DNA of 64,000 bases. Source: Spironucleus salmonicida. Lineage: Eukaryota. Shown piece after piece: positions 1,601 through 60,520 of the stretch (its first letter is position 1; the number at the start of each line of letters is the position of its first letter). Where the stretch lies: assembly GCF_000497125.1 (NCBI RefSeq), contig NC_090602.1, positions 558,001-622,000 of the forward strand. The letters are read 5' to 3'. The position numbers and the translations under genes were made by a program. The notes under the pieces were generated by a model. The model was not told the origin of the DNA. It saw nothing but the letters and a program-made list of their open reading frames with translations, and searched no databases.

Positions 1601-1965
1601 TTTTATATATAAAAAATAAATATATAATAAATATTTTTATTTTATATGGACAAGTATTACAAAATAATAAAGTGTCGGCATGGGGAGTGAAGGAGATTAT
1701 TGCATGTTTATGCAATGTAGTGATTAAAGTTATTTAGTTCATGCCTACTACACCTCAATTAAATTCAAGTAATAACTAACTCGGAGCTTCGTGATGTTAA
1801 ATATGGCATTCGTTGAGCTGGGAGTCTATACTGGCAGGTAGGGTATCGTCAAATCCGGGATAAATATGACCAAGTACTGACGTAATGACTTGGTTGTGCA
1901 ATGTTATTAGAAATACTACATTTTGCCTGATGTGATTGTGCATGATTATAATATGTATTGCTAAA

Positions 1966-2169
1966 ATGGACATGGACATCCGCAGGCAATTCCTCCCGGA
2001 AAGGAATGAGGCGAGGGTTCAACACACTAATAACGAAGTGGAGCTATTTCTGATGTAGGGACACGTCGTTGGTCCCAGTAAAGGTGGTGAGCGTGCGAGT
2101 ACTTGCCGCACCTAACTGGGCAGTGGAGGTAAGAAATTATATCAGCAGCTACGCGGACGGCACCTATGA
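1966..2169 (+). CDS. small hypothetical protein (67 aa), IR1 copy 1
   Basis: AAAATG start, open to TGA, followed by CAGTGA. Converges on Kae1. Confidence 0.35.
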
Positions 2170-2187
2170 CTCCAGTGAAGAAAAACG

Positions 2188-3225
2188 TCACCACTTTATC
2201 TCCACCGAATCGGTCCTCCATCTCTGCACTACATCAGCGGCGGCAACATCCACACGCCCAACACCGTTCGTCTCCTGCAGGTACCCTACAAGGCCAATCA
2301 TAGCCCCATTATCTATGCAATATCGCTCATCCATGCCACCGATTGACCCACCCCTCTCCTGACACATGATGGCAAGCATCTCTTGGAGACGCTCGTTGCA
2401 CCCAACGCCACCAACACAGAGGACGTTCTAGCTACGGAGGTGAGCACAGACGCGCTCCGTAATTTCAACAAGCGCAGCAAAAAGATTTTCCTGTAAAGAA
2501 TAGCAGAAGTACTGTACCAACTCCTCTTGGCTGGTGATGAATTCTGGCCACGCCATACTTAACTTTTCGAAGTGAGTACGCATATAGGAATTGATCCCAG
2601 AGCAGGATACATCCATACCTTTGATCGGTATAGGAACATCTAGAATGTGCTATTTGTGCGCAAACTTTCTAGCCAGCAGCTCGATGTTCAACCCAGGGGC
2701 TGGGTCGTTACTAATTCCAAGATCTCTTGCCACACGGTCCAGACAGTTACCTACTGCTACGTCGATAGCTTCACCAAAAATTCGATAGCGACCGTTTTCG
2801 AGTCCCAGCACCTGTGTGTTTCCCCCACTCGCATAAAGGACTACCGCACGATTCACTCCTAATACATGGCGACCCATTTCGGCATGCGCTACACAGTGGT
2901 TCACTGCCTATATGGGGATACCAAACCGCACAGCTAGTGTTTTTGCAACCAACAATACCGCAGCAAGAGGCCCTCCAAGGCCAGGACCGCGAGTATATGC
3001 GATTATGTTGATCTCAGTCATACGAACATGGGCAATGTGGAGGGCTTCGCGCAGCAGAGCAAGGATATGGCTACGGTGATGTTGTGTGACTTCTGGTGGA
3101 CGGAACCCAGACCCAGTAGGAGCTACGAATGTATGGCGAACGTTTGAAAGAATAATGTCGTCGCATAGGACAGCGACCCCGAGCTTATTGGCAGAGCCTT
3201 CTAGACCAAGCGTGTAGATCGGCAT
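2188..3225 (-). CDS. KAE1: tRNA N6-adenosine threonylcarbamoyltransferase Kae1/OSGEP (345 aa), copy 1
   Basis: [21 protein letters not shown] metal-binding motif, [39 protein letters not shown]. Four track ORFs join in frame across three TAG codons. Confidence 0.95.
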
Positions 3226-3242
3226 TCGGAGTGGTAAAGGGA

Positions 3243-3818
3243 TCACTCGTTCTTGGTATCGGATTACGCTTGAATCTGCGCTTTTACATCTCGAATTGTG
3301 ATGAGCCGCTTAGCTCCAAAGTAGCTCACCATGCCAAGAACACCCCATATTACTTCTAGAGACAGGAAGATAATGAGAGCCGCTTACCAGTCTGGTATAG
3401 CATGGCTATTACCTACTCCGTAGCAATGTGCACCAATTTGTTAAGACCCAGGAAGACAACTGTCACAACTGCCGTCTTCATTAAGTTAAAATCCCTGCAG
3501 ACAAGAAAAACACGTTGCTGGAGAACTGCATATCGCACAGTTTTTGGCAATTCCACAACTACAGGGCGTGTTCATCCCACTTAAGGGAGAACATATTTCC
3601 GCTTTCCCATTATTACAAAAGTGCATGATCTACAGGGAGTCACATGCTTTGGCACAGCGCCCATTGGTCTGCCACACAAATCCTTCTGCACATACTTCAC
3701 AAATATCTGTAGAAATGCAGGAGGTACAGTTTTCAGAGCAGGGCGTACATACCTATGCTCCGGATTCAGGGCAGTAGGAGAAATTAGGGCAGGGAGAATC
3801 AGAGGAGCAGGCGGCCAT
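3243..3818 (-). CDS. short cysteine-rich membrane protein (CXXC, 191 aa), copy 1
   Basis: Mirror of 7334..7909. Confidence 0.85.
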
Positions 3819-4015
3819 TTCGGTATTGCTGCATTCCTAGTATAATATTTCCTTAAATACTACTATGAAAGCAATAGAATTCTACTGATAAAAATATTAA
3901 CAATAAATACTAGTATTATATATTATATTATATAATTTCTCGCGTTAAAAAAGACTTAGATAATAAATTTTCCTTAAATAATAATTAATTATTTATATTC
4001 TATTAATTTATCAAA

Positions 4016-4396
4016 ATGCTACTTTTCCTATACTTCGAGTTTAGAGTTGAAATTTTAGAAAAAGGAGACGGAATTACGTATGCATCGGAAGAGGATAGGG
4101 TGACATACCATTATACTTCATTTATGGAAAATGGTACGTAATTTGCTTCTTCCCATGACTATAAGATTCCATCGGAAACAGATATAGGGTGTCCATTGAC
4201 AATATAAGGACTAAATATTGGTCTTACGAAAGTGTCTTTAAACGAAAAGGCACGTATATACATTCCATGGAATATGGCTTATGGTGATAAACATGTTGGT
4301 GTTTTAGTACCATAAAGTAATATTTATATCGATGTAGAGATTAAGAAAATTGAATTCGGTTCAGAGAATGATGCTAATCAATATTCTGAGCTCTGA
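4016..4396 (+). CDS. FKBP-type peptidyl-prolyl isomerase, probably ER-luminal (126 aa)
   Basis: VEILEKGDG..VTYHYT..NGTQFASSHD..IQGLNIGL..EKARIYIPWNMAYG..PQSNIYIDVEI. Hydrophobic N-terminus and C-terminal YSEL (KDEL-like). Confidence 0.85.
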
Positions 4397-4467
4397 CATG
4401 ATATTTATAAACATGTTAATGATTTTCATAATTATTTTAATTAAAATATTATTTAATATTAATAAAT

Positions 4468-4531
4468 TTTGAGATTCTAATATATATTAATCTAATATAA
4501 TTAAAAAATTCATATATATTAGAATCTCAAA
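4468..4531. repeat. 20-bp perfect inverted repeat with 24-nt loop
   Basis: TTTGAGATTCTAATATATAT (4468-4487) and ATATATATTAGAATCTCAAA (4512-4531). Confidence 0.85.
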
Positions 4532-4537
4532 TACAAA

Positions 4538-4786
4538 ATGTAAGCAGATAGTTTACTATCAATTTCGAAACTACTAAACAAAAATGCATTAGATGGATCT
4601 GGACACACTAGTCATCAATGTTCAATATAACTATTAAAATAACTCAATTAAACTAAAAAATAGTAATAATTTTAAAAATCATTATATTAAGCTGAATCGT
4701 AATTTGATCAGTTAATGAGCAAGATTTCAAATGTGATTGAAAGATAGGAGATAACTCTTAAAATAATATAAAAACTAAAATAGTGA
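4538..4786 (+). CDS. small hypothetical coiled-coil protein (82 aa)
   Basis: AAAATG start, ends TAGTGA. Confidence 0.5.
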
Positions 4787-4811
4787 GCTATTTATTGTGA
4801 TTTTATTCGCA

Positions 4812-5306
4812 TCAATCGCTTCTTTTCTTAGCAAAGCTTACACGTTCGGGAAGTGCTGTTTCTTGCTCTGTCTTTTTCTTCATAAATGATACTCTTTCTG
4901 GTTACTGAACTTCATTCTCATCATTTTGTTTTTTCTAAGTCTTTAAGCAGATTCTGTCTTAATTACATTAATTAGGTTATTAGTTTCCAAAGAAATTTGA
5001 AGCATTCGATGACGATTATTGATGTTTGTTAGCATTTGCAGTTTCCTAAGCATCTTAATCTTGTTGTTACAGATGCTATTCTTAGGAGTTGCAATTTTCT
5101 TATTAAAATTGAGTATTCTTTCTACCATAATCTGTAGGTGCATTGTTAAAGTTAAATGTATCATCGGATCTATTTTTTGATGGTACATTAAATTAAACTT
5201 CATGAGACTATTACTAACTATCTATTTTATGATAGTCAGAAGAACGATTTCCGGTATCGATTTCTGAGTTTTAGTTGGTTTTACGGAGTGATGCACGATC
5301 CTACAT
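4812..5306 (-). CDS. Gln/Asn-rich low-complexity hypothetical protein (about 164 aa)
   Basis: AAAAATG start MQDRASLRKTNQNSEIDTG. Hydrophilic frame open to a TGA at 4812-4814. Confidence 0.45.
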
Positions 5307-6211
5307 TTTTAAGGAATGTTAGAATTTGAATTTCTATGAATATAATGACAAATGGTAATATTATATTGTATATTAATACCACTAAAATTATATAAAATTT
5401 TCGGAACTAGTTTTCTAATAAAATTTATTCAAATTAGATTTAAATCTATTATGTACAACCTAAACTAATATATAAGTTAATTCCTCTACTTGTCAGATAC
5501 TTTTATTCTAAGAAAATGTTATTATAAATTTCGTAAACAATAAGTTTAGTTATAGCTAATTTTAGTCCACAGATCTTTAATAATAAATAATTCATGATGT
5601 ATTTAATATATATAAAAATTTAAATTTAGTGTATCTACTATGGAAATTAAATTAGTATCTTCTATTTTACGTTAATCAAGATTCGTAAATAGAAGCAATA
5701 TAGATAAACAGAAGTATGATTAAGCATAATATACATTAAAATACTACTTAGAAAGTTACTTAAATCCATAAAATTTACTAATATTGAAACAATTATTATC
5801 TTCATACTATTAATATTTCTGATTTATAACTTTCTAATTCAGTTAAATAGCTTAGTCTTAAAGTTAAATAAAGTATACAGTATATTTCGATTTAGTATAT
5901 TATACACACTGATCTCTACTTTAACCTCAAATACTTGTTCTATGTTTATATTTTTATAGATCAGCTAAAAAATACTAAAGGCTTTTAACCTAATATAATA
6001 TTAAGATAATCTAAATGAAACAAACTAAACTTATAAGCAACTAACTCAACTATCAAACTAATATCAATTAAATAATATTACTCATTCTAATAGTAATAAT
6101 AGTTATTTATTATAATATTATAAGTGAATATCTAATATATATTTTCTACATATTTTGTTAAATCACGAAACTATAAACATAACGCTAACATTAAATTATT
6201 AAATCTCATAA

Positions 6212-7186
6212 ATGCTCTATTTAGTCTTTTAATCAATAGATGATAATATTCCATTTATTGCTAACCGTACAGGGGCACCAGCACTTATGGATTTTGAATA
6301 GATATTTCGTCTATTTGATACTAATATCTAAGACGTTGATGTCTATCAATTGACATATAATGTTCCAATGTCAGGTGGCGCGCTGAACGAGTTTTTATCA
6401 CATCCTAATCATGACATACCAGTAAAATTTGAGATGATATCTAACATGATACGGTTATCATTTAATAAAGGTACAACAGTACATTAAGTTGAATATTTCG
6501 GAACCTCTTTACGCTCCAAAGTAAGTAATATTAGTGCTCCACCATTCAATGTTCTTATCTACTATCGTATTAATGATGCAAATTGGAATACATGGGAGAC
6601 TGAAAGCGTTAGATTGACGAATTTACATCGTACTGCCAACAATTTGCCGGTACTAGCCTTTTCAAAAAAAGCAAGTTGGATATCTAGGCTTAAAGCTATT
6701 GATATGGCTGCAAACAGCTATTTTGATCACAATTCACCATATTATGGTAATCCTTCTCAACTTATAAGAACATTTGGTACTCCTAATGTTAATTATGGTG
6801 AAATATTAGTTAAGGGAGGAATGGCTTTTACTCCATAAAGTGCATTTATGGTTTGGAAGAATTCACCTGTTCATAATAAAATTATGTTAAATTCTGATCT
6901 TTTTAATATTTTAGGTGCAGGTTGTGTCTTATAGACTGATCAAGGAACATATTGGGTGTAGGAATTTAATAAGTATTATGATGGTCTAGAAGATTCGTTT
7001 AACTATGGAAATGACTTAAAACTATAACCATCTTATGAAAATGAGAATGCTATTGTCAAAACTAACATGCCTATTATTGTAGGCATAGTTATCGCAATTG
7101 TAGTGGTTTTAATTGGTATTGGTTGTATTACTGCTATTGTTGTTATTAAAAAGAGAAATGAAGTAGCTGTGCAATAAATTAAATGA
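6212..7186 (+). CDS. CAP/SCP-domain membrane protein, bacterial YkwD-like (324 aa)
   Basis: VRLTNLHR..NNLPVL..SRLKAIDMAANSYFDHNSPYYGNP..GEIL..WKNSPVHNKIML..GAGC..YWVQEF. C-terminal TM followed by KKR. Confidence 0.85.
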
Positions 7187-7333
7187 GGTTGGTTATAATT
7201 TAGTTTTTTTAATAAATTATTTCATAACATTTAAAACAAAATATTATATTCTAATGATATAATAATATCTATTCATTAAATATTAATAGTAGTATTTAAG
7301 GAAATATTATACTATGAATGCAGCAATACCGAA

Positions 7334-7909
7334 ATGGCCGCCTGCTCCTCTGATTCTCCCTGCCCTAATTTCTCCTACTGCCCTGAATCCGGAGCATAGG
7401 TATGTACGCCCTGCTCTGAAAACTGTACCTCCTGCATTTCTACAGATATTTGTGAAGTATGTGCAGAAGGATTTGTGTGGCAGACCAATGGGCGCTGTGC
7501 CAAAGCATGTGACTCCCTGTAGATCATGCACTTTTGTAATAATGGGAAAGCGGAAATATGTTCTCCCTTAAGTGGGATGAACACGCCCTGTAGTTGTGGA
7601 ATTGCCAAAAACTGTGCGATATGCAGTTCTCCAGCAACGTGTTTTTCTTGTCTGCAGGGATTTTAACTTAATGAAGACGGCAGTTGTGACAGTTGTCTTC
7701 CTGGGTCTTAACAAATTGGTGCACATTGCTACGGAGTAGGTAATAGCCATGCTATACCAGACTGGTAAGCGGCTCTCATTATCTTCCTGTCTCTAGAAGT
7801 AATATGGGGTGTTCTTGGCATGGTGAGCTACTTTGGAGCTAAGCGGCTCATCACAATTCGAGATGTAAAAGCGCAGATTCAAGCGTAATCCGATACCAAG
7901 AACGAGTGA
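7334..7909 (+). CDS. short cysteine-rich membrane protein (CXXC, 191 aa), copy 2
   Basis: MAACSSDSPCPNFSYCP..CTPCSENCTSC..CEVC..NCAIC..CFSCLQGFQLNEDGSCDSC.., then TM AALIIFLSLEVIWGVLGMVSYF. Ends GAGTGA. Confidence 0.85.
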
Positions 7910-7926
7910 TCCCTTTACCACTCCGA

Positions 7927-8964
7927 ATGCCGATCTACACGCTTGGTCTAGAAGGCTCTGCCAATAAGCTCGGGGTCGCTGTCCTATGCGACGACATTAT
8001 TCTTTCAAACGTTCGCCATACATTCGTAGCTCCTACTGGGTCTGGGTTCCGTCCACCAGAAGTCACACAACATCACCGTAGCCATATCCTTGCTCTGCTG
8101 CGCGAAGCCCTCCACATTGCCCATGTTCGTATGGCTGAGATCAACATAATCGCATATACTCGCGGTCCTGGCCTTGGAGGGCCTCTTGCTGCGGTATTGT
8201 TGGTTGCAAAAACACTAGCTGTGCGGTTTGGTATCCCCATATAGGCAGTGAACCACTGTGTAGCGCATGCCGAAATGGGTCGCCATGTATTAGGAGTGAA
8301 TCGTGCGGTAGTCCTTTATGCGAGTGGGGGAAACACACAGGTGCTGGGACTCGAAAACGGTCGCTATCGAATTTTTGGTGAAGCTATCGACGTAGCAGTA
8401 GGTAACTGTCTGGACCGTGTGGCAAGAGATCTTGGAATTAGTAACGACCCAGCCCCTGGGTTGAACATCGAGCTGCTGGCTAGAAAGTTTGCGCACAAAT
8501 AGCACATTCTAGATGTTCCTATACCGATCAAAGGTATGGATGTATCCTGCTCTGGGATCAATTCCTATATGCGTACTCACTTCGAAAAGTTAAGTATGGC
8601 GTGGCCAGAATTCATCACCAGCCAAGAGGAGTTGGTACAGTACTTCTGCTATTCTTTACAGGAAAATCTTTTTGCTGCGCTTGTTGAAATTACGGAGCGC
8701 GTCTGTGCTCACCTCCGTAGCTAGAACGTCCTCTGTGTTGGTGGCGTTGGGTGCAACGAGCGTCTCCAAGAGATGCTTGCCATCATGTGTCAGGAGAGGG
8801 GTGGGTCAATCGGTGGCATGGATGAGCGATATTGCATAGATAATGGGGCTATGATTGGCCTTGTAGGGTACCTGCAGGAGACGAACGGTGTTGGGCGTGT
8901 GGATGTTGCCGCCGCTGATGTAGTGCAGAGATGGAGGACCGATTCGGTGGAGATAAAGTGGTGA
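7927..8964 (+). CDS. KAE1: tRNA N6-adenosine threonylcarbamoyltransferase Kae1/OSGEP (345 aa), copy 2
   Basis: As copy 1, with in-frame TAG at 8242, 8500 and 8722 and one Thr/Ala difference. Confidence 0.95.
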
Positions 8965-8982
8965 CGTTTTTCTTCACTGGAG

Positions 8983-9186
8983 TCATAGGTGCCGTCCGCG
9001 TAGCTGCTGATATAATTTCTTACCTCCACTGCCCAGTTAGGTGCGGCAAGTACTCGCACGCTCACCACCTTTACTGGGACCAACGACGTGTCCCTACATC
9101 AGAAATAGCTCCACTTCGTTATTAGTGTGTTGAACCCTCGCCTCATTCCTTTCCGGGAGGAATTGCCTGCGGATGTCCATGTCCAT
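8983..9186 (-). CDS. small hypothetical protein (67 aa), IR1 copy 2
   Basis: Mirror of 1966..2169. Confidence 0.35.
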
Positions 9187-9362
9187 TTTAGCAATACATA
9201 TTATAATCATGCACAATCCCCGGGCAAAATACTCTTAGAATATTTTGCATCATAGATATTAATTCAGTTTAAAGAACTCCCATCATATTTAATTATTTTT
9301 TAACAGTTATATATTATTATACAAAATAAAAGATAATAATTGATTAGAATTTTTAATATATT

Positions 9363-10802
9363 ATGAACGACGCAATCTAGATTAAAGAATATGCAAAAGA
9401 GTTAAATATTTCGTATTAACCTCCTCCTCTATAAATTATTAATGATGAAGTACTTCTTAAAATTAACCAATTTATATTATAAAATACAATCCCAGTGGAA
9501 ACATACAATTTATCGCTTAAAAAATTGGATTTATACAATTAGCTATAAAAACATTAAATTTTACTCAAATATTAATCACCAGCATAATTAGAACTAGCAA
9601 TTCAATAGCTTAAGTAAGAAATTCTGAAAAATAACTCTAAAGAAAATACACACTTAACCTCTAAGCTTTATTAATATAATAGAGAAATTAATAAACCTTT
9701 AAAGCAAATATCACTTTACGATGCGGAAAAAGCAATTTCTTTAAACGCATATTATTAAAATATTACGTCATTTATTGACAGATTCAATATCACAACTACG
9801 AACTCAATTACCTAACTTATGGATATTCAAGCTAAAATGGACAATTTCGAGCCAAAAATTTTCAAAGTTATACAAAGTGATATAGGGGATATAAAAATCA
9901 TTAATTATGACTAGAGAGCACAGGAATTAAAAACGCGTTTTCAGGCTTCCTACGAAAAGCACTCAAAATTGCTTGCAGAGAACCAAAACTTGGCAAAAAA
10001 ACTCGATTTTCACTCATAAACGTCTCACGACATTCTCAATTATGACATAAAAATCAACCAGTTAAACGTTTCCCTTTTTGACAAGATGCAACTTTTCCAA
10101 CAAATAAGTCTCCTAGAGCGCCTGAACTAAGGCCTCAGGAATGCAAATTTCTTCATCGAAAACGAAATTTTGCTTCTTTCTGATTCGTTCAAAATCAACG
10201 AAATTTACTTAGAAACCTTAATCGAAAATGCCCAAAACAATGCTGTTCTGAAAACCAAAAATGATGACATTTTTCACGTCGCTAAATCGCTAATTTCACA
10301 GATTTTTAACTTCTCAAAAGCGGCGCAGACGCACCTGAACCAGCTCCAGGGCGTCGCGTACTCCCAAATAGCAAAGCAAAAGGTCGGAAATGACCTGCTC
10401 TAAAGCGACTTTTTGGAGACCGGAAAGACCTATCTGGGACTCGAAAAAATAGACTTTCGGGGGCTGCGCGTCCTTAGCGGTAGCTCGTTCGTCTACGGCG
10501 GTGATATTCCGTAAATTTTGGATGTTTAGGGGTCATATTTTCAGTATACAGGGCAGTGGGATCGATTTTTAGGTAGAAATAACCTCGAAAATGGTCTTTT
10601 TGGCCTGTATGAAAAGCTGGCGTAAGATGGGGCCGAAATGACGCGGAACAGAGAATTAAACATTTTGAAAATGCTTCATTAGGGTGAATTGGAGGTCTAG
10701 TTAAAGCTATAGAATACCGAAATTTACTATGCTGAGACGATGAATATTGAGCTGGACGACATAATTATGCAATGCCAGCAGGCTAAAAGAACGATAGAAT
10801 GA
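9363..10802 (+). CDS. hypothetical helical/coiled-coil protein (479 aa)
   Basis: 1440-nt frame with no TGA, containing track ORF 10170..10403. Ends TGAGTGA. Confidence 0.75.
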
Positions 10803-11990: not shown

Positions 11991-12039
11991 CAAGTTCCTA
12001 ATATATATATATACTATTTACACAATTTTTGAAAAATTA

Positions 12040-15467: not shown

Positions 15468-16137
<670 letters not shown>

Positions 16138-39924: not shown

Positions 39925-39962
39925 CCCAACTATAAAGTGAGAATTTTGTTAATGTAAAGCGC

Positions 39963-45268: not shown

Positions 45269-45309
45269 TTTTAGCGGAGCGATTTTTATACAATTATTAT
45301 ACAATTATT

Positions 45310-48119: not shown

Positions 48120-48344
48120 TCACTTAAAAACTAATCTCTTCAACGATTATATATTCTGTTAGTCAAAGTTAAAATCATTATCGTCTGAAAGCTCTAAATT
48201 GAAAGAAATATTTATTCCTCGCTACAATATTGACTATGAAATGGCAACACTAGTTAGTGCCATTAATTTTGTATTGTGATTAGATAATGGTGGCAATATG
48301 CGCTTATTTCGTATCATTTTATAGGTATAATTATAGTTCTCCAT
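48120..48344 (-). CDS. small hypothetical protein (74 aa)
   Basis: AAAATG start, ends AAGTGA. Confidence 0.35.
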
Positions 48345-49007: not shown

Positions 49008-51503
49008 ATGATAGTCTTTGTACTAACTGAAACTATTTTCCCTTTATTTTCATAGTTTGATAAAGACAAACATATACCTAGAGGCCCAAATTCTAGAATT
49101 TTACCAGAAAAATTTTCTTATATTGATAATAAATGTATTGATAAATTTATAAGAAACTAAGGTTCATGTGGAAATTGTTGGGCTGTAGCTACTGTAACAG
49201 CTTTAGGTTTACGAAGATGCCTATAAGGTGATGATTAACTTCTATCTATTGAAGAGCATACTGGTTGCGACCATGTGAGTAAATATGGCGTCACCAACAA
49301 TGGCTGTAAAAATGGTAATGCTATTCCAGCTATGTATTACTCATAGAATATAGGCGACGTGTATGAATCTTGTATAAAATACAAATAAGCTAACGCATTT
49401 TATCCGTGGACTGATGTTGCTTGTTAATAGAAATGTGATAATGGATAAGAAAAGTAAAGATTTAAAGCCACTAATGCTAAAAGAATTTCAGGTATAGATA
49501 ATATCAAACAAGAAATCTTAGTTAATGGGCCTGTTGCTGCTTCAATCTTCTTATATTCAGATTTTCCTCCTAAAAATAAACTAGAGCCATATTATTAAAC
49601 AACTACCTAAAAATAAGGTGGTCATGCAGTAGTTATAGTAGGTTGGGGTGAATATAAGGGTGTTCCATATTGGGATATTGTAAATGGATATGGTAAAACC
49701 TGGAATTAAGATGGCCGAGTTAGAGTTAGATTAGGTACTAACGAAATGTCACTTGAGTCATATGTCACAGCTGCTGATGTTAAAATCAATAATGATATAA
49801 AACCACCTATTAATAATGGATAGTTTTCATTTTAAGATAATTTTATTTATCAATAATAAGCAGTTGTTTAGTATACTAAATTTAGTTAATGTTTGCTCAA
49901 AATAGATAATACTATAATTTAAACAATTGAAGGTACTGGAACGGTAAAGTTTTATGTAGACGTTATTCCAGGATAGCATACATTTTCATGTAATAATATT
50001 AATAAATAATTTAATGTTATAACGTACAATCTAGAATTTACTATAATGCCAACAATAGTCAAAGAAAATGATATGATAACAGTTTAGAGTCTTGAATTAT
50101 CAGCTAGCTAAACAGTTTCATACAACTATTAAAATTATTCTTTAATAAATGGAAAAGTTTAGATAAAAACTATTATTGGATAATCATAAATCTAGATATT
50201 CTCTATTAATACAAATCCTATCATGAAAGAAAATAAGATTATAGTATTCAAGGAATCTCCTTTGGATCCAGATATTTAACCACCATAGGATGGAACTGTA
50301 TTAAAAATTACTCAATAACCACTATAATTTTACGAAGTTCATGGAAAGGCAACTATATAACTTCTCATATAATTTATATTTAAATTAAAAGTAGAGGTTT
50401 TTAATACACATGGCACGAAAATCTAAATTATAAATTGGTAAAACCCTTAGAATATTAAATATGAAATATATTAAACTTTTACAAGTTAGTAATTGGCTTA
50501 AGGAGAGTATTATTTCTAAATAACAGGTACCAATAACTATATTATTCGATCTATTAAATTTTCTGTTGGTAAATAACTTTGTACTTTAGTATTTCCTTCT
50601 CATTTAGATTAAATTTATTAATTCCATGATTTTCCAATCTCAACTTTAAATTGTGGGGGGGAATTCATTAAAATAGACTAGTAGATAATACCTATTACGA
50701 ATCCATCTATCACTTATCAAAATATGTTAACTCTAGGAGCACATATGATTTTCTTAGGCGAACTATAAGCTACAATAAATATTATCTAACCTCCATCTTT
50801 TACAGATACTATTCTTTATGGGAATATTAATGAGGTTGTCGTATTACAGGTATAAAATCTACCTTAGAAGTATATCATTCAAACATAACTTTAGTATAAT
50901 GTGAACAGCTTATCCTTTAGCATCACATCTAACAAAGCAGGAACCTTTGACTTTACACTTAAATCATAATAGGTTTACCCGGATATTACATTAAAAGCAT
51001 AAATTGTGTTTTTAGCAAATTCTTGTACAATTAGTATAGATTAAAGTAATCCTCTTGTTAATAAATAAATAATTCTTACAACTACGTGTGTAGGCCAATA
51101 AGTTTTATACTATCCTTCTGGTGAGACAAAAGTTATTGAAAACTTATTTACACCACATATTTAAGGAAAATATAAAATATGCATTACTACAAATTGCATA
51201 GAGTTTTCTGTCAAAGGTATAAATGTTGAAATAGATTTTAATAAAATTAACAGTTTAATTGATAAATTTTCAATTTAATTTTCAATTATATAGTAATAAA
51301 AGTTAGTTATTTAGATTTTATGTCCAGAAAATAATTACAAATTGAATTTGATTGTGTTTGAATCAGATACTAAACTTTAGCATTTAATTTTACCAGAACT
51401 TGTATGTAAGAAGGCTTATATTAGGATTAAAAGTATTGGAACTACTAATTTAATATATGGTGATTCATCATATTTTGATGTACAATAAAATCTTTTAATT
51501 TGA
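49008..51503 (+). CDS. papain-family (C1A, cathepsin B-like) protease with long C-terminal extension (831 aa)
   Basis: RNQGSCGNCWA, NNGCKNG, NGPVAA, GGHAVVIVGWG, PYWDIVNGYG. The frame stays open for about 580 more codons. Confidence 0.9.
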
Positions 51504-51553
51504 CATTCTGAATACTTTTATAATTTTTATATATAATAGCGTTATTGTTAAAA

Positions 51554-52777
51554 ATGAAGATAGATACTGTTTACTTCTAAATTGTAACTTTTGGAGTTAT
51601 GATTTATTTCCCATTCTTCTCGTTATTAGCTTCTAATAATTATTGGACACAGTTCTATAGTTTATAGTTTACAACATATGCCTCATGTACTTATAATGTT
51701 TTAGAATCATTAGGCTCAATAGTATCTGTTCCTTTAATGAAAAAAGTTTCAATTCATTCTATAGTCAATATAACACTAATATTTAATTTATTAAGTTTAA
51801 TTCTCATTCCAGTACTTGTTTTCATTAGTAATAAATTAACTAGGAGTATCTTAACGTTAATTCCTATTGCATTGATGGGGATATGTGGTGGGACCTGTTT
51901 TACTGCATTGGCTACCTTTACCTCTTAAATTGAGTAATAATACGCTTAGGCGTTGTAATTAGGTACGGGGTTATCTGAATTAATAGTGTAGGTATTAAAA
52001 ATATTATTTTTCTACACTGGGACATTATTTGGTGGCTCAGACGAAAATTAAGTATTTTTAGAGAATTTATGTTATTTTTTAACAGCATTTTTATACATTG
52101 TTCTAGTTACATTTTTATGGCAATAAATGACAAAATAACATTAATTTGCGAGGCAAGTAATAGCTAACTATGATGAAGCAGAAGGCCTTTTACATGGGTC
52201 AGATAATGACAGTTTACAACCTATTAAAGTAAAATTGAGTAAAAAATCAATCAATATAGGGATAGCAATGTTCTTCACATAGTTCATTACTTATTTAACT
52301 TTTCCTGCACTTACTACGTCCATTCCTTTTATATAAAACATAAATAGTGGTTTATAATTTCTTGATCCCTAGTTTTCTTTATGGATCATGTCATCCTATT
52401 TATTTTCAGACTTCTTTGGCCGGATGATAATTAAATCTAGATTTATTTAACGTTTTTATAGTTACTAATTAGCAGTTACAGTGGCATATTTTAGAATATG
52501 TTTGGTACCATTATTCTTTATAGTAAATCTTCCTAGACCTAAAGAATAAGTTCTCCCATTAATCCATAATGATATATTTTCCTTTATACTCGTAGCAATC
52601 TTTTCTCTTACTGGGGGAATGAATCTGACGGTAATATTTGTTAGAGCATAGGATAATATCCTTAGCGTCTAAGAAATACATAAGATATCTAATTTTATTT
52701 CTATAATGTGTACTGTAGGTTGCACTGTTTCAAGTTTTGTAGCTATTCCAATTAGCCTTATTGTGAAAGATGAATGA
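51554..52777 (+). CDS. equilibrative nucleoside transporter family (407 aa)
   Basis: Multi-TM protein with YAQALQLGTGLS, FITYLTFPA, FSDFFGR, FRICLVPLF and FSLTGG motifs. Confidence 0.85.
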
Positions 52778-53407
52778 TTGTTGAGTTAGTATATTTATAG
52801 TAGAATTCGTAGTAAATTTATATTACTCTGGTAATCTAGATTTTTTCTACTATAAATATTGTAAAATAGAATAAGAAATAATACTTATATAATAATATAT
52901 TTATATTCTTATTAATGTTGCGGAAGTTTTAAATTCACTCCAATTCATTAAAAATATATAATATTTACAACAAAATTAATTATTTAAGAATACTTCTATA
53001 TAAAAGTATATATTAATATAAACTATATTAATAAATGGATTGATACTACTTCAACCATGGTCACTAATAAAGAAAACTAATTTATTAAATAATATTATTA
53101 TTATTATCTGAATATAAGCAGTAGAAATTATTATAACTATTTTAAATATGTAGTAAAACATAGAACTAAATCTATAACCATATTAGTAAATATTATTTTA
53201 ATAACCAAGTTTCATGAATACACACTAAAATTACTATTGAAATAATAATATTAGAATAGTCAAAATCTAAATATAAAATTTATTCTTTTTTATACGTATT
53301 AAATTATATAGATGTAATTATAATATATGGAATTCAAAAAAACAATATTATTCTTTAAACTAGATATCGTAATATAAATTAACAATCTAATTATTTTAAA
53401 TTTACTA

Positions 53408-54301
53408 ATGGGAAAATATGGTCAATGTTCAATTAATGTTAATATGTGTATAGTAAATTCATACTGCCCAGCAAATACTACTGACAATAGTCTAATTAAC
53501 TGTTTGCCATGTGACTCCAATAAGATTCAAATTGGTTAAGGTTGTAATTGTATAAATAATATATAATTCAATAACTGTGTAAAATGCATTGATAATAAAT
53601 GTGAAGATTGTTTATTAGGATATTTTCTTAATAATTAAGGAATTTGTATAAAATGCGAAGATAAGTGCAGTATATGTTAATCTGAGACATTTTGTATGAC
53701 ATGTGATGAAGGATTTGCTTTAGATATTGATGCAAATATTTGTTATCCTGTTTGTACATCTAATATTTAATGTCAAGATACTAATAATGGTTATTGCAAC
53801 TTTGATAACAATTATTGCAAGCCATGTTAAAATAATTGTAAAATTTGTTTATCTGAGGTATTTTGTGTTTAATGTGATTGAGATAGTTCGACTAGGGTAA
53901 ATACTATTGATGATATATGTACTAAGTCATGTTTCGATTTAAGCAGTGGCTATTACTGTAAGAATGGCGTTGCTACCATTTGTGATAATAATACATCTTC
54001 TGCATGCATGTGTTTTGGAAAGATTAACTGCAGCACATGCGGTAATAGTAATTATGGGTGTGGTAAATGTCTTCCTAATTTTTAACTTGACAATACCGGA
54101 AATTGTTCTTCATGCCAGCCAGGGTATCAAAATATTGGAAACTTATGTATTCCAATATAAGATGACGAAGCACGTACAAAAATAAGTAATCAAGTAATAG
54201 CAGTTATGATTGGGTGCAGTATATTAATTATTGCAGCAATTTGCGGCGGGATTTCGCACTACATAATTCAGAAGAAACGAGCGGCGGCAGAAGTTATATG
54301 A
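53408..54301 (+). CDS. cysteine-rich membrane protein (297 aa), paralog of 36407..37300
   Basis: MGKYGQCSINVNMC.. with the same Cys spacing. Last about 30 codons identical to the paralog. Confidence 0.9.
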
Positions 54302-55382
54302 AGTCCTAGCAGCTTGTTAGTGCAAAATAATTGCGGGTGGCGATAGTTTTTAAATTTAAAGGTAAGCAGCATGAAGTTTGGATAAGTTCAGGTATTTGGC
54401 TGAGATAGTAATATCCGTATAGCCCTTTTATTTTTACGGTATCCTGAGATAGGTGGATCAGGAGAACTAAGGTAACAGCATGACGCTCGTTTGCAAGGAC
54501 TTGCGTCGTGTTAATAAGTACTTCATTGCATAAAGAATAGCAGCGCAATTTCCTTTTGTCAAAGACCAGAGTGCGTGTGGTAACATGAAGCATCAGATTT
54601 CAAAAAAAAAATACCAAGAGAAAAGTATAAATTTAAAATTTTACGTTCAATATAGTATGAGCAATTTGTATTTTGCAGGCTATATATTTTTCTCTAAGAA
54701 GCAAATATCGCCAATAACTATCGCTGGATGATAGTGGTAGCTTACAGCGATATTTATGATAATAATGCAATAGCCTATACGGAGCTGCTGAACCATGGGG
54801 TTGCTTCCCAACAGATTCATGGATTAACCTAGCCTTCGATGATCAACCAGTCAGGTGCTCGTATGAGAGATTTAGATCCTGCAACTGGCGGTGCGAGTGA
54901 CTACTTGAATTCAGTTCCTCTTGGTATTCTGGGGTGCGCGTAATTTGATAACTTTCATTCTGCAGCAAAGTAATTTATAGTGTATTAGACAATATATATT
55001 CATATTGGTAGCGGTGCAAATACTTTTACAATGTAGGCAGTCCTCTAGAAAGCATATGGTAACTCGGTGGCGCGATGAAAACCTGATGGTGGGTTATACA
55101 GGCTGCTGGTGCCACTGGAGAACGATACGCAACCATATGTAACTTCGGTATGCCGGTTGAATAATGTAGAGTAGGACCCAGGTAAAGCTAGGTGCCTGAT
55201 TCGGCGGAACTTTCCAGTGCGCCGGGGCCTATTGGCCTACTCTAATGCGGCAATGCCCATTATCAGAAGGCTTCCTGCCACTCAGCGGCAAGAAACTCCC
55301 AGCAGCTGCAACAGGTGCGAGAAACTACTCACGTAGTGGATGCAAAGCAAACATAAACCTGGCTACGGCCCAACGTATTCTC

Positions 55383-55937
55383 TCACTACCACTTCCCGTC
55401 GTCGGCGTACGTCGCCCCCAGGAGCCCCTTGACTCCCGCGCCAGTCCGGTCCCGGGCGCAGTTCTGCTTTCCGACGCCGAGGTCCGCGAACTTCCACTCG
55501 GGGATCGCCTCCCGCTCTACCCTGTTGTGGACGCCGAACCGCATCTTGGCCCCATGGTCCACCTGCCGCCCCTTGAACGTAAACTGCCCCAGCGTGTCCT
55601 GGGGGATGGGGCCGTTGCGCCCCTGGTAGAAGCGGTTGTACAGCTCCTTGGGGCGCGTTTTCTGGTCCGAGAGCAGGCGCTTCCCGGTGCAGCAGGGGTC
55701 GAACCGCGCGCAGGAGGGGTCCTTCTGCGTGATGAGGGGGACACTTTTGCGGGAGATGGTCTGGCTGCAGGTGTGCTGCGGGAGCTGGACCTGCGGCTTG
55801 ACGATTACCCTGGGGGTGGGCAGGCGCTGCGGGACCGGAACAGACTTGAGCTCTCGCACACGCTGCGGCTTGTTAACGTACAGCGGCGTCTGCATGTGGC
55901 TGGATAGCGCGGTCCTGTCAGTGAGGTGCAGGGTCAT
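55383..55937 (-). CDS. basic Pro-rich hypothetical protein, copy 2
   Basis: Mirror of 34772..35326 with A/V and L/V differences. Confidence 0.75.
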
Positions 55938-56193
55938 TTTAGGCGGAGTGAATACCTTGCTATTTGCTATACTATAATCGTAAAGGCTAAAAGTCATTTT
56001 AAGTATTATATATGCTAAGTAAATACGGAGTCGGTGCGCAGCTTATGGAGGTCCCCCTTTGGAAAACCAAGAAGTCGGACGACTCGTTCGAGTTGCTGCA
56101 GGAATTGAACAAAGCCAGCCTCACCTCCTCAAATATTTTGCCCTCCTGCACTATTTTTTCGCCCAGGGCCGAGTCGGTCTCGCAGCAGCCCAT
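55918..56193 (-). CDS. small MGCC protein (91 aa), copy 2
   Basis: Mirror of 34507..34791 lacking three codons. Confidence 0.45.
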
Positions 56194-58709
56194 TTTAAGA
56201 AGGTGGGCGTTCTACGTAATAATGTCAATCCGGAGAAACTAGATTTTGTAATCCCCAAGAATATTTTACCACTGGCCTCCTACTATACTATATGATAATA
56301 TTTAACATCCCTGAAATGGATACCACTGTGCGGCAGAGGGATCGCTTCTTTGCGTTTACGGTGCAGTGCTATCGCATGCAGCATCGTATGGTACCTGCTG
56401 TAGTGAGCTCTGCTAACATATAAATTCATATAAGCACCGTCTGGCAGTGTCGCCAGCCACCCGCCGAGTCGTACCAGCTGCGCAATCTGCACCATTTCCT
56501 GCGCCGGCGGTTTCGGAATCTAGCTGGTACCTGTCAAACCCTACGAACTCTCTGCAGGTGGCTCAACCATACTTCTAGCTGAATATGTATTCCACTGCGA
56601 AAGTGGAGGCGCAGTCAGCCGACCTCCGTCGTTGCTGGGTTACATGCAGATAGGTCAGCAGACTTCTTCGAGTGCATGCTTTAAATTTTGAGTGCCAGCA
56701 CATCCTCAGTTCCAGTATTGGTAACACGAAATTCAGACGAAACCTGCAAAACACATACCTTTCAGCAGATGCCAGACGGGTCAGGTTAACGGTGCCAGTA
56801 TCTGATACTGCACCCTGCGCAATCTTATTGCACCTAGCATGCTACTGGACAGATTTTAGCAGCTCTGGCGAAAACAAGGCCTCCCCAGCAGTACGAGCAC
56901 CGGTTTGGCCCAGAGTCGCAGGGAGTATAGCTCCTATCGGAAACTTATTTAGCCAGAACTATCTTAACAGGCCCCATCCAAGCGGGTCAGATTTTCATCT
57001 GTCGCACAGCTGGCAGGCTTTGGGGGTGACATCAGCAGGACAGCCTCATGCAAACTTGGATGAAATTGAGGAGGCTCGCCACGGTTTGCACTCCCTAGCG
57101 CTATTTGAGTTGGGTGGGTAGAAGGTGCATGCGGATTATTTATTCGGACTGCTCCAGCATTTTTCTGCTGCCATCATTTTAGAAACAGTATAGTTTCAGT
57201 ATTTGTGCAATTTGGTATTTTGATCTGGCTATGCTCTTACAGGAGATGCGCAACTTCGACTGAATGAATTATCTCGAAAGGTAATATCGACCGATCCGAG
57301 GCTGAGAAAACGCGAGTGTTCTTTAGGTATCAGAATATGGCTGGTTTAGCTGCTAGAAGCTGAATTGGTAATGGATAGTAATATATAGTATTTTCTTACT
57401 TGAGAAAATCATATAATATAGAATACCATAATAAAGTACCAATATTATAACTTTGTCTGGAGTTCTGTATGTAGGAACAAAGGATCGGGATGTGAGTATT
57501 TCTGAAAATCATAGGATGGTGATTCCAATTCTAGAGGATCCCCTGCTGCTAGCTTTCTCAAAAGTTTGTTTATATGATACTGTCTATCTCTAATTGATAG
57601 CGTTTGTTAAAAAAATATATTAGTATAAGTCACCTACACGCAATACCAGAAACTGGCTGATAGTATGCACACTTATTCTTAGTTCATATACTCTTCTATC
57701 CAGGAATAAAATCCTTCATATACGTTAACTGCGGCTTATATAGCGTAGAAGTTATGATTAGCCAGCACACAACGTAACGGTCTCTGGTATTGCAAGGAAA
57801 TAACTTGTTATTTTGGGATTCTGATTTTCATAGGTAAGTCAAACACCTAAACATACTAACCATTTGATATCAGAGTTATTAATAATTCGAAAGAAATCTA
57901 ACAAGATTTTGAAATTTATAGTGAAAATTACCCATACTAGAAAAATAGTAATTCTAGTGAAAGATATCAAACACTGTATGAAATCGTGTGTTTACTAATT
58001 TATGCAAACATGCTATCAATAAATGTTTTAGAACAGAGATCAACTTGATCATAAAAGCATAGATACCTCATCAAACTATTGCTGGTAGCGCATTGTATGA
58101 TATTAAGGTCATGTTGATTGGATTAATATGACTTTCGTTTTAGACTAAGATTCATCAGATTATTAATGAATATATTTCATAGATTGAAGCAGGTAATACC
58201 ACAAATCACAATACCATCACCAGTAATATTGCGATTTTTTGTGTAAAGTAGCTCATGCCGATCTCCTGAAAAATAGAAATTGCAATAATGTCTAGGTTAC
58301 GAAAATAATTTACTTACAATTACGTATGAACGTCACTTTAAACTATCTATCCACATGATTATAAACTGCTAACCAAGTGTTTACGAGCTTTTTATAACTT
58401 AGTGTTATATGTTTGCCTACAAACTCGCCATATAAACAGATTAACGCAAGGATCTATTTGCGCTTCTGTGCATTTGTTTATATTCCAATATGATGCCTTA
58501 TTATCTGAGGTTCCCAAGCTGGAAAACATATTTTATTTTATTATTAATATTCACACTAAAAGGCAATAGCTAAATTATAAATATTAGTATATATCCTTAA
58601 GCTTACTGCTTTAATGCTAGTCTGCTGTTTGCTGATAGTTAGATGCATATTATGGCTATAAATTAAGTATGGATCCAGTATATGAATAGAATTATAATAT
58701 ATCCTCCAA

Positions 58710-59603
58710 TCATTTCCTGCCATGCCTTGTGCCAGCGCTACCGATACATCTTTTTTTCTTCATCATAAACCAAACTCCAGCACCAACTGCACCGGCTACC
58801 ACTAATACGGCTATCACTATACCAGCAATTGCTCCTCCACTAAGCTTATTGTCGTCAATGGTACCATCCGCTTCCACAGGCCAACACATAGTTCCTATCA
58901 TTTCGAACCCATCTTCGCATGAGGTACAGCTTCCATTTTCGTTAAGTTTACTGTTAGGTAAGCATGTTTCACATTTGTTTTCTGACTGATTACAGGATGC
59001 GCAGTTTTATTTATCACCACAAGTGCATTGTGAAGTAAGGCCTGCTGTACAGGGAGCTGCTGCTCCATCGTTACAGTAATTACCATCAGCAATATTATTG
59101 CATTATGGGGTGCACTTACCATTAATTGTACTAATAAAATTATTTTCACAAACAGTACAAAAAGTTAGAGACGAACATTCTTTACAACTACCATGGCAAG
59201 GTTCACATCTGTTGGTTATCTTGTTACAGAATTTTTAACCAATGCCCTCACACTATTTGTTAGAAGTGCAAACCAGTACGCATTTCAATGGGTTTTACTC
59301 TAAGACATGATCTTTAGCACATTTTTGACACTTAGATAACGCAGTACAATCATCACAGTCAGGAATACAATATTCGCATTAATTTCTTGCGAGATATGTT
59401 CCTTTAATGCATTTAATGCATTGGCTATTAGCACATTATTAGCAATTAATAGAAATGGTGTTATTTTTACAGTAACATCCTTAGCCATCTTAAATATTCT
59501 AACTGCATGGTAAACATGCTTCTAATGTATCTGACATAGTTGCGCAATAGTTTCCAGCCTTGCAAGTAGCAACTGAAGTTGAACACGTGCCTGTATCTTC
59601 CAT
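58710..59603 (-). CDS. cysteine-rich membrane protein (297 aa), IR3 copy 2
   Basis: Mirror of 31097..31990 with about 12 amino-acid changes. Confidence 0.9.
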
Positions 59604-59962
59604 TTTTTAAAATATATTATTGGTATTATAGAGTTATCTAAAGGATCTTGGTTTCTGAAAAAAGTAGTATATCGATATTAGTACTAAATTCTGCGGGTTA
59701 ACAAATATACTCAACACAACCTTACTTATTCATATTTGTACTAATTATTCATATAATAAAACAATTTACTTATATTAACTATAATCCCAATTATATACTA
59801 TAACACATTTTCAAGTAACCCTCTTTATTACCTCAGCTATACCTATTAAACCAGCAAACTTAAAAATACGAATTTATCTATCCGTACGCTATATTTCTAC
59901 ATCTACATCACCCAGCTTTTTCCAAACCTCGCAATCCCAACACTACTGAAGTAAAACCGAAT

Positions 59963-60520
59963 TCACGCACTCTAGCTCTTCTCCGCCGAGCCCTCGCCCA
60001 CCAGCGGGGTCTTCTCCGTCTCTGCCTTCTGCTTTTATCCCTACTTGTGCTTTATGACTCTGTACGCCACAACGCCCACAATCGCCCCCGCGATGACGCA
60101 GACAGAGACGCAGAGGCCAATAATCGAACCCTCAGGCATGGCCTCCGTGGCCACCTCGCACGCTCCCGAATCGCCCAATTTTGTGCCCGCCGGGCAGGAC
60201 TTGCAGAACGCCTTGGCGTCCATTCCGGACTCGCAGCGGCACACGAAAGCCTCGTTCACGAGCTTGCAGATGCCGTTTGGGTAGCACGATTCATTGCCGC
60301 AGTTCGCGGGGTAGCACTTTTGGTCCTGCAAAATGGAATGCGGGAAGCGAGCGCAGATTGCGCAGGCCTTCGTGAAGTCGTATCCCGGGTTGCACTTGCA
60401 AACTGCGTAAATCGGGTTTTCAGTAGACTGGACGCACTGGCCGTTATCGTGGCAGTTTTGATCGCACGTGTCAATGAGGCAGGTGTCGTTGATTAAAATT
60501 TCTTGTTGGCCGCAGTCCAT
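59963..60520 (-). CDS. EGF-like cysteine-rich membrane protein (185 aa)
   Basis: CHDNGQC..CKCNPGYD and CYPNGIC..CRCESG. TM IIGLCVSVCVIAGAIVGVVAY. Reads through the TAG at 60041. Confidence 0.85.

Follow-up and report, generated by a model that had tools for sequence, protein, structure and literature searches.

The window analysed here is a stretch of 64,000 nucleotides from Spironucleus salmonicida, a diplomonad that uses genetic code 6. Self-BLAST detected three long inverted pairs within it (E 0.0 each), and both pairwise alignment and a repeat search agreed. The resulting spaced palindromes (IR1, IR2 and IR3) have arms of 1.93, 2.98 and 5.93 kb and spacers of 3,413, 3,754 and 17,647 bp. 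Their summed arm length of 21,675 bp amounts to 33.9% of the window, which confirms the statement of an earlier note on this DNA that three large palindromes cover about one third of it. The IR1 arms differ by 2 substitutions in a 1,933-bp core (with ragged ends reaching 1920 and 9230), the IR2 arms by 2 internal substitutions and 1 edge substitution, and the IR3 cores by 63 substitutions plus 11 gap columns over an alignment of 5,930 columns. Arm-to-arm divergence is 0.10% for IR1 and 0.07% for IR2 (both 99.9% identical), while the identity of IR3 is just under 99% (98.9%). The arm-specific differences are few and fall mostly in IR3, and the repeats are inverted rather than direct, as had likewise been noted. 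The only long near-identical direct pairs within the window are two (ATT)n microsatellites, and the only direct-orientation paralogues found, the CAP genes, are 64% identical with a GC3 of 0.22. A Pfam scan of 28 chosen ORFs, a selection and not every ORF, returned no transposase or recombinase family, so that the reported lack of a visible enzyme holds within this set. A transposon or a site-specific invertible element was rejected, given the lack of such an enzyme in the scanned ORFs and repeats that consist of kilobase blocks of host genes.

Each palindrome holds two mirror-oriented copies with abrupt edges, several of which cut through genes. The claim that all palindromes carry intact genes stands insofar as intact copies are present, but the IR2 left arm begins inside a 965-aa gene, and both ends of IR3 fall within cysteine-rich genes. 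The gene copies of IR1 and IR2 differ at 0-2 codons, and the IR3 pairs at 3 and 12 codons. The cysteine-rich membrane genes of IR1 are identical and head-to-head with 3,515 bp between the ORFs; IR2 contains no cysteine-rich gene, and its gene copies have 4,290 bp between ORFs. The 965-aa gene cut by IR2 has a homologue alignment spanning 86% of its length and a GC3 of 0.73 outside the arm as well. Its truncated copy lacks an A/T-rich upstream tract and has its first in-frame ATG at 10923, giving a 355-aa protein for which an exact record was found in UniRef and eukprot. No convincing gene was recognised in the IR2 spacer. The exact sequences of the 204-aa ORF pair of IR3 were absent from the protein collection searched.

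Table 1 Features of the three inverted repeats and their edges (positions are those of the window)
Feature	Position	Strand	Evidence or remark
IR1 left arm	1934..3866		Self-BLAST, alignment; outer flank seen as loose end at 9218 in 4/4 runs
Kae1/OSGEP (TsaD, PF00814) copy 1, 345 aa, code 6	2188..3225	-	Pfam E 2.6e-62 on mirror copy; a public collection contains the exact protein
Small cysteine-rich membrane protein copy 1, 191 aa	3243..3818	-	30-38% identity to the window's other cysteine-rich membrane genes
IR1 spacer	3867..7285		26% GC; contains Q-rich ORF and CAP-domain membrane gene
Q-rich ORF	4812-5306	-	RNA-type contigs in X5
CAP-domain membrane gene	6212-7186	+	RNA-type contigs in X5
IR1 right arm	7286..9218		Single 1,903-bp contig (7316-9218) in X1, X2, X3; fork at 9189-9218
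Small cysteine-rich membrane protein copy 2	7334..7909	+	0/191 codons differ from copy 1
Kae1/OSGEP copy 2	7927..8964	+	Differs from copy 1 at 1 amino acid
Single-copy gene between IR1 and IR2	9363..10802	+	GC3 0.20, climbing to about 0.6 in the direction of IR2
IR2 left arm	10851..13834		Extends to 13854 with an inner-edge indel of 20 bp allowed
5'-truncated Sel1-like gene copy	10851..11990	+	99.7% identity to residues 611-965 of full gene
Hypothetical gene copy 1, 508 aa	12040..13566	+	RNA-type contigs 12015-13567 in X5
IR2 inner-edge scar, near-tandem repeat of period 20	13822..13854	+	2 copies in left arm, 1 in right arm
IR2 spacer	13855..17588		21-22% GC; (ATT)n at about 15468-16137
IR2 right arm	17589..20572		Flanks are loose end at 10851 and contig pieces at 13801-13834
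Hypothetical gene copy 2	17857..19383	-	0/508 codons differ from copy 1
Full-length 965-aa gene	19433..22330	-	Weak Sel1 match; C-terminal hydrophobic segment; arm edge near codon 587
Decayed cysteine-rich reading frames against IR3 left outer edge	28600..30570	+	Final 12 nt match 31778-31789 within arm
IR3 left arm core	30571..36498		Ragged to 30568-36530; X1 10,058-bp contig stops where arm begins
VSP-like cysteine-rich membrane gene copy 1, 297 aa	31097..31990	+	Pfam VSP E 1e-5, under curated cut-off; cluster of 2 members
204-aa ORF	34712..35326	+	GC3 0.86; A/T-rich upstream tract; mirror copy 55383-55997 (-)
Intact cysteine-rich membrane gene across IR3 left inner edge	36407..37300	-	Last 30 codons inside arm
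IR3 spacer	36499..54209		ABC transporter, CFAP91, papain-family and transporter-like genes
Mirror paralogue of 36407-37300	53408..54301	+	Equal length; outside arm 56% nt identity, inside arm same tail protein
IR3 right arm core	54210..60130		Pairwise alignment
VSP-like gene copy 2	58710..59603	-	12 codon differences from copy 1, none synonymous
Intact EGF-like cysteine-rich membrane gene across IR3 right outer edge	59963..60520	-	GC3 0.76 outside, 0.78 inside

The near-identity of the IR1 arms and of the IR2 arms could also arise if the assembly had set haplotypes or fold-back chimeras side by side, and short-read contigs bear on this alternative. DNA runs X1, X2 and X3 come from one sample, possibly the source of the assembly, whereas X5 is a separate study with RNA-type contigs. 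Contigs fork at 9189-9218, 10851-10880 and 13801-13834, and in X1 and X2 each of the three forks shows both flanks. The raw arm-to-flank depth ratio is 2.4-2.7 in all three DNA runs and about 1.9 in X1 after a rough GC fit, although contig depth does not equal copy number. In X2, an unrelated 40.5-kb contig has a depth of 11.5, the flanks 10.8-16.3 and the arms 26.8 and 29.7. Each tested fork has both flanks at background depth, and the arm depth is doubled. Both alleles at 11669 are present in X3 (depths 4.6 and 4.5), and X5 contigs run into the arm at 10851 from both flanks. The lengths of two contigs, 1,692 and 10,058 bp (the latter from X1, 20543-30600), equal the window distances exactly. 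Forked contigs that reach both flanks at the arm edges, together with an arm depth near double that of the flanks, make an artefact unlikely for IR1 and IR2, and the real inverted duplication proposed earlier is supported at these two repeats by arms at double rather than half depth. The single contig lay-out leaves out the IR1 inner joints and most of IR3, and the listed DNA contigs leave the IR1 spacer mostly without coverage. Sequencing supports IR3 only in part and indirectly; its 63 substitutions and 11 gap columns also speak against an artefact, which we consider very improbable for the palindromes as a whole.

The arms contain 43.2% GC compared with 32.2% elsewhere in the window. Non-coding tracts follow the same trend, with 39% in the arms and 24.5% outside (6 vs 16 hand-chosen tracts, Mann-Whitney p 0.002). 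Parts of the arms are AT-rich, namely the IR2 inner half and the outer 2 kb of IR3 (24-35% GC). GC does not track the arm edges within the window, because GC-rich sequence extends past the arms at the IR2 right outer, IR3 right outer and IR3 left inner edges and two spacer genes have a GC3 of 0.69. Genome-wide, 19.2% of S. salmonicida is reported as duplicated, with 44.7% GC in duplicated regions and 30.7% otherwise (assembly paper of 2022, PMC9509377); the available text of that report contains no discussion of the orientation or local mirror geometry of the duplicates. The high-GC3 islands of S. salmonicida, less marked in S. barkhanus, were left unexplained by Andersson et al. 2007 (PMC1805757, PMC2874811), and the word "inverted" is absent from the available text of PMC1805757, PMC2874811 and PMC3916229.

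One IR3 edge is placed within an old pair of mirror-image paralogues (56% identical) and the other at a short microhomology, the outer-junction match being equalled by 2 of 400 controls. The inner edge coincides with the membrane anchor of a pair of colinear, inverted paralogues that are exact mirrors, with both ATGs 802 nt from the edge and no indels; the paralogue in 53408..54301 has one in-frame TGA near 53879. Their GC3 values are 0.51 on the left (131/258) and 0.17 on the right (45/261), with third positions of 58 vs 7 strong/weak. The tail that they share (GC3 12/30) differs from the right paralogue (p 0.006) and resembles the left (p 0.34), a test that weakens to p 0.096 when the last 89 codons serve as the comparison and that later conversion confounds. 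In addition, the intact, GC-rich edge genes of IR3 stand on opposite arms. This polarity of intactness and GC3 hints that the spacer may already be inverted relative to the ancestral order.

The reading that we favour, at a probability of roughly 0.55, is that three independent local inverted segmental duplications were born by template switching, persisted by flipping and were then homogenised by conversion that was probably GC-biased. At birth, repair or replication synthesis would jump to a nearby opposite-strand template and then return, guided by microhomology or by the conserved membrane-anchor ends of cysteine-rich genes. Such an event would leave two new joints per palindrome together with beheaded or chimeric genes. 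Because the native-looking IR3 edges stand on opposite arms, the IR3 spacer probably took its inverted orientation at birth or by a later flip. A crossover between inverted arms would flip the spacer and delete nothing, and inverted copies may therefore survive where direct ones pop out. Subsequent arm-to-arm conversion, probably GC-biased, would keep the arms alike and raise their GC; if a partner were lost, its GC-rich counterpart would stay as a single-copy island. The template switching suggested in the earlier note finds support in short scars, present at 2 junction sides and picked after inspection of all 12, and in the one edge within homeologous paralogues. The scar at the IR2 inner edge is a 14-nt match with 1 mismatch, and 0 of 600 control sites get to 13. 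Homogenisation by conversion is plausible; we infer it rather than observe it, since the comparison covers this genome only, IR3 divergence is not significantly uneven (permutation 0.31 for event density along the arms) and IR1 and IR2 could simply be young. The differences between the IR3 arms have no strong/weak asymmetry (28 vs 23, unpolarised). Substitutions are clustered (29 of 63 against 5.1 expected), and of 10 tight clusters only 1 has a reverse-complement template of 9 nt.

Young rearrangements that underwent no later conversion fit almost as well, although we hold them to be the less probable origin. They would be small inversions with a duplicated breakpoint, as in the staggered-break model for Drosophila (Ranz et al. 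2007, PMC1885836), or recent adjacent inverted duplicates, as in Caenorhabditis elegans, with divergence reflecting age and GC-rich islands breaking or duplicating more often. The divergence of IR1 and IR2 is near the allelic heterozygosity of 0.09% (PMC9509377), 5 of 6 edges are abrupt without decayed homology, and at several edges high GC persists on one side. Native edges on opposite arms, as in IR3, would follow from staggered breaks, and a shared tail resembling the left paralogue would agree, subject to the weakness of that test. In Drosophila, 17 of 29 inversions have inverted breakpoint duplications, which resemble the present arms in being exclusively inverted, non-repetitive duplicates, often of partial genes, on either side of a segment (PMC1885836). 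Those copies, however, have a median of 321 bp and a maximum of about 1.9 kb and have decayed to a mean identity of about 88% (PMC1885836), while the present arms span 2-6 kb and are almost identical. The predicted ancestral joins have no recognisable continuity, a weak test as they are mostly intergenic, and plain ageing is not expected to cluster substitutions. The position of the IR3 inner edge within pre-existing homeologous paralogues favours homology-guided switching over a random break. The youngest C. elegans duplicates are mostly adjacent and inverted, as here (as described in PMC4546093), and that description, in its available text, draws no link to GC islands.

The exact mirror geometry of the inner paralogues would also be expected of old, formerly longer palindromes worn back from their ends, whose edges would be boundaries of deletions or conversion tracts and whose GC-rich single-copy flanks would be former arm. 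In the collection, the proteins of these flanks stand alone in clusters of 1, lacking any near-identical partner, and primate arm/spacer boundaries do shift, leaving intermediate GC (PMC8981503). The contrasting GC3 of the two paralogues is hard to square with past joint conversion, residual homology extends past only 1 of 6 edges and AT-rich tracts are retained in IR3, which makes such erosion improbable. A selected switch, in which spacer flips exchange bodies or promoters of surface-antigen genes, is more doubtful still. Cysteine-rich membrane genes do lie on 2 of 3 palindromes, and a flip of the IR3 spacer would shift the two inner paralogues between arms. Near-identical arms mean that a flip alters the edge genes little, the scanned ORFs include no recombinase, one inner paralogue is broken, and the 12:0 non-synonymous ratio of the VSP-like pair, which might suggest selection, is weak (chance 0.10 for 10 single-base codons).

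Among known systems, the closest are the inverted vsp pairs of Giardia, likewise a diplomonad, whose identical or near-identical copies lie head-to-head or tail-to-tail (PMC2996952; G. intestinalis WB, PMC7000408; G. muris, PMC7641422). In both, near-identity runs into the flanks and ends abruptly (PMC2996952). The Giardia pairs have 2,190-3,847 bp between ORFs, a range that includes IR1, narrowly excludes IR2 and lies far from IR3 (PMC2996952). Adam et al. 2010 found identical vsp genes in inverted pairs only and interpreted the pairs as recent duplication, the term "gene conversion" being absent from the available text (PMC2996952). The Spironucleus arms differ in being multi-gene, with the housekeeping gene Kae1 and partial genes, in an IR2 without a surface gene and in the 17.7-kb spacer of IR3. 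The CRGKA ending of Giardia vsp genes occurs in none of the translated arm genes, and the best VSP Pfam match is below cut-off. Judged by their sequence, the window repeats appear to work like the Giardia vsp pairs without being members of that class. Spironucleus is a protist not known to have sex chromosomes. Its palindromes resemble those of primate X and Y chromosomes, with spaced, inverted, gene-bearing arms of high identity (98.9-99.9% here) and a GC content above that of the flanks, non-coding sequence included (Jackson et al. 2021, PMC8981503). An arm identity above 99%, taken as a mark of this palindrome type, holds for IR1 and IR2 and is narrowly missed by IR3. Primate arms reach over 1 Mb with a GC contrast of about 5 points, compared with 2-6 kb and 11 points here, and their age and GC-biased conversion were demonstrated via outgroups (PMC8981503).

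It is possible, if doubtful, that diplomonads have a genome-wide palindrome life cycle in common. Local template switches would keep making short spaced palindromes, with spacers often of about 3-4 kb in Giardia and Spironucleus; strongly GC-biased arm conversion, present and past, would make the Spironucleus GC islands; edges would swap the membrane anchors of surface antigens, and spacers would flip. To this the window contributes read-graph support and edge anatomy, with the caution that GC passes beyond the arm edges here. Its repeats appear close to the inverted pairs of Giardia, with housekeeping and partial genes in the arms as the addition. If short palindromes with GC-biased conversion gave rise to the GC islands of S. 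salmonicida, unexplained since 2007, the origin of these islands would become testable with one related genome. On that condition, the Giardia vsp pairs would be one instance of a wider diplomonad process in which housekeeping genes are also doubled and the tails of surface proteins reshuffled.

Self-alignment and pairwise alignment confirmed the three inverted repeats (IR1, IR2 and IR3) described in the earlier note, and their arms occupy 33.9% of the window, in agreement with its estimate of about a third. Long similarities in direct orientation are limited to the two (ATT)n tracts of the window and to two CAP-domain genes, which lie 55 kb apart and share 64% identity. The genes of the window are uninterrupted ORFs when TAA and TAG are read as glutamine (table 6). 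A Pfam analysis detected no transposase or recombinase among the 28 ORFs scanned, in line with the first inspection, which saw none, and no tRNA was found in the window. Each IR1 arm carries a small Cys-rich membrane gene and Kae1, the copies on the two arms being head-to-head, with intergenic arm edges; the best named match of the Kae1 protein is from Hexamita inflata (60% identity), which, like the genetic code, indicates a hexamitine diplomonad. Only the right copy of the Cys-rich gene is preceded, at a distance of 20 nt, by an out-of-frame ATG, which one of the two IR1 substitutions creates.

Coordinates of the inverted repeats and associated features in the window
Feature	Left copy or position	Right copy or mirror	Remarks
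IR1 arms	1934-3866	7286-9218	core 1,933 bp, 2 substitutions
IR2 arms	10851-13834	17589-20572	2,980 bp compared, 2 internal substitutions
IR3 arm cores	30571-36498	54210-60130	63 substitutions plus 11 gap columns across 5,930 alignment columns
IR1 substitution (ATG)	3837	7315	
Single-copy gene	9363-10802		
965-aa gene		19433-22330 (-)	weak Sel1 match
9-mer	13822, 13842, 15450 (+)	17593 (-)	all four matches in the window
(ATT)n, ~670 bp	within 13855-17588		IR2 spacer
(ATT)n, ~470 bp	about 62404-62872		
VSP-like arm gene	31097-31990	58710-59603	IR3
Substitution cluster	32650-32656	58044-58050	IR3
204-aa ORF	34712-35326	55383-55997	IR3
Spacer gene	38782-39924		IR3, GC3 0.69
CFAP91 spacer gene	45310-47409		IR3, GC3 0.69
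Papain-family protease fusion	49008-51503		~580 residues without Pfam match

The physical reality of the duplications was evaluated by aligning short-read contigs to positions 3900-15350, which contain the IR1 right arm and the IR2 left arm. Contigs from four of the eight listed runs were used; X1, X2 and X3 derive from one sample, which is possibly the source of the assembly, and X5 derives from another study. Among the contigs listed, beyond which lie 33 further contig pieces and 15 loose ends, the arm edges are fork points; at 9218 and 10851, the loose end is letter-for-letter identical to the flank of the other arm. Contigs of 1,692 bp and 10,058 bp equal exactly the window distances 9189-10880 and 20543-30600, respectively, and the latter stops at the start of the IR3 left arm. 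The contigs thereby cover the outer joints of IR1 and, of the four IR3 joints, the left outer one. Half depth over the arms, which the earlier note had named as the mark of an artefact, was not observed: among the contigs listed for this region, the arms in X1, X2 and X3 exceeded the median depth of the flanks by a factor of 2.4-2.7, which a five-point GC fit lowered to about 1.9 in X1, although contig depth is not equivalent to copy number. An unrelated 40.5-kb contig in X2 has a flank-like depth of 11.5, which argues against reading the flanks as haplotypes at half depth. X3 displays both alleles at 11669 with equal depth. These results indicate that the inverted duplications are genuine, directly for IR1 and IR2 and indirectly for IR3, and make an assembly artefact very unlikely; the contigs have no power to show spacer orientation. 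An apparent lack of DNA cover over the IR1 spacer was rejected as a real feature and reflects a gap in the contig listing. At 11493 and 11669, the X5 contigs match the right arm alone, which does not establish silence of the truncated IR2 left copy, since contigs drop variants; no listed run is recorded as RNA.

We favor, at a probability of roughly 0.55, an origin in which the copies would have been born by local template switching, would have persisted by escaping deletion through recombination, and would be maintained by GC-biased conversion between arms. What is observed is the presence of two copies, their geometry and the structure of their edges; the three steps are inferred. Recombination does not delete inverted copies. 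The arms have a GC content of 43.2% versus 32.2% elsewhere, and their non-coding tracts, taken from our own annotation, have 39% versus 24.5%. Against a simple picture of GC-rich arms, the inner half of IR2 is AT-rich, whereas two spacer genes are GC-rich and, at three edge sides, GC-rich sequence extends past the arm. The 965-aa gene has a GC3 (GC at third codon positions) of 0.73 in its 5' half, although contig structure shows this half to be single-copy. Single-copy GC islands of this type either remain as ghosts where arms once lay or indicate that GC richness came first. A tentative alternative, which we consider possible and less probable than birth by template switching with subsequent conversion, is that these are young inversions or duplications without conversion. 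In the single-copy gene next to IR2, GC3 rises from 0.20 to about 0.6 towards the IR2 outer edge; a comparison of this gene with the partner flank found no homology, and the gene shares an RNA-type contig with the sequence beyond its junction with IR2. The two GC-rich genes of the IR3 spacer have no duplicate in the window and are candidate ghost islands. The 204-aa ORF in the IR3 arms has a GC3 of 0.86 and an A/T-rich tract upstream; it has no Pfam match, and as its exact sequences are absent from the public protein collection, it may be unannotated or its true start may lie elsewhere.

The IR2 outer edge falls inside the 965-aa gene. The right copy is complete, and 86% of its length is covered by the alignment with a homologue; therefore, truncation affected the left copy. 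At the inner edge, a 13-14 nt word is near-duplicated 20 bp apart in the left arm and single in the right (0 of 600 controls), which can be read as a right-arm deletion or a left-arm insertion. Residual homology past the IR2 outer edge was rejected: a local DNA match at 300 bp was equalled in only 17 of 3000 shuffles but failed at the protein level, where 807 shuffles in 1000 and 490 in 2000 attained the score. Exact 12-nt outside matches were rejected on their own (present in 28 of 300 controls), as were an anchored match at the IR1 outer edge (4 of 250 shuffles, not significant across 6 edges) and a snap-back hairpin at its right outer joint (8 bp, reached by 9 of 600 controls, not significant across 12 sides). 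Homology decayed past the edge was found at one of the six edges, and erosion of older, longer palindromes is regarded as improbable. A 9-mer, picked after being seen, has four matches in the window (0.09 expected), all located either at the inner edges of IR2 or some 10 bp ahead of the (ATT)n tract in its AT-rich spacer; duplication does not account for the copy at 15450. The DNA around both (ATT)n microsatellites is very AT-rich and apparently without genes, and one of them lies mid-spacer in IR2. This arrangement loosely resembles those yeast centromeres that are flanked by inverted repeats; the IR2 arms, however, carry genes.

The right outer edge of IR3 interrupts no reading frame, the EGF-like membrane gene that spans it being intact. 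At the left outer joint, the tail of this gene is fused to decayed Cys-rich frames, and the sequence spanning the joint matches an arm gene at 19 of 20 positions (reached by 2 of 400 controls); no homology was found between the decayed gene and the EGF-like gene. The inner edges lie inside two mirror paralogues of equal length with 56% identity over 802 nt, the proteins being identical from the membrane anchor onward. The left paralogue is intact and GC-rich, while the right is AT-rich with one in-frame stop. The intact, GC-rich edge genes are thus on opposite arms, which modestly suggests that the 17.7-kb spacer may be inverted relative to the ancestral order, based on the GC3 of 30 codons with p from 0.006 to 0.096 depending on the comparison.

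Between the VSP-like arm copies of IR3, 12 codons differ; every one of these differences is non-synonymous and precedes the membrane anchor. Positive selection on this pair is not significant alone (p ~0.10), and a selected switch is considered highly improbable. Template switching was rejected as the source of the clustered IR3 substitutions, with a 9-nt template in one of ten clusters and at most 6 nt in the others. In one of the ten, four substitutions give the right arm a perfect inverted repeat of 6 bp, as expected from a quasi-palindrome template switch. Patch conversion from a third copy was also rejected (the protein cluster of the VSP-like gene has only 2 members at 90%), as was uneven conversion along IR3 (20 versus 19 events, with p 0.065 in a binomial test and 0.31 in a best-split permutation).

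The accessible texts of Giardia reports describe 14 inverted pairs of identical vsp genes, which have abrupt edges and are separated by 2,190-3,847 bp (PMC2996952), 19 inverted pairs in a later G. intestinalis assembly (PMC7000408) and 7 in G. muris (PMC7641422). In the openly accessible main texts searched, these vsp pairs were the only such architecture found for diplomonads, and multi-gene inverted palindromes of Spironucleus were not described. The mechanism of the inverted duplications is of known kinds, primate palindromes being a model for GC-biased conversion (PMC8981503) and Drosophila providing a duplicated-breakpoint model (PMC1885836), as far as the accessible portions of these papers go; that of PMC5954013 contains no statement on an absence of non-homologous end joining in diplomonads. 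In S. salmonicida, 19.2% of the genome is described as duplicated and GC-rich (PMC9509377), and the accessible sections of the reports on its GC islands give no explanation for them (PMC1805757; PMC2874811). The main value of the inverted duplications is as a way into this GC-island question.
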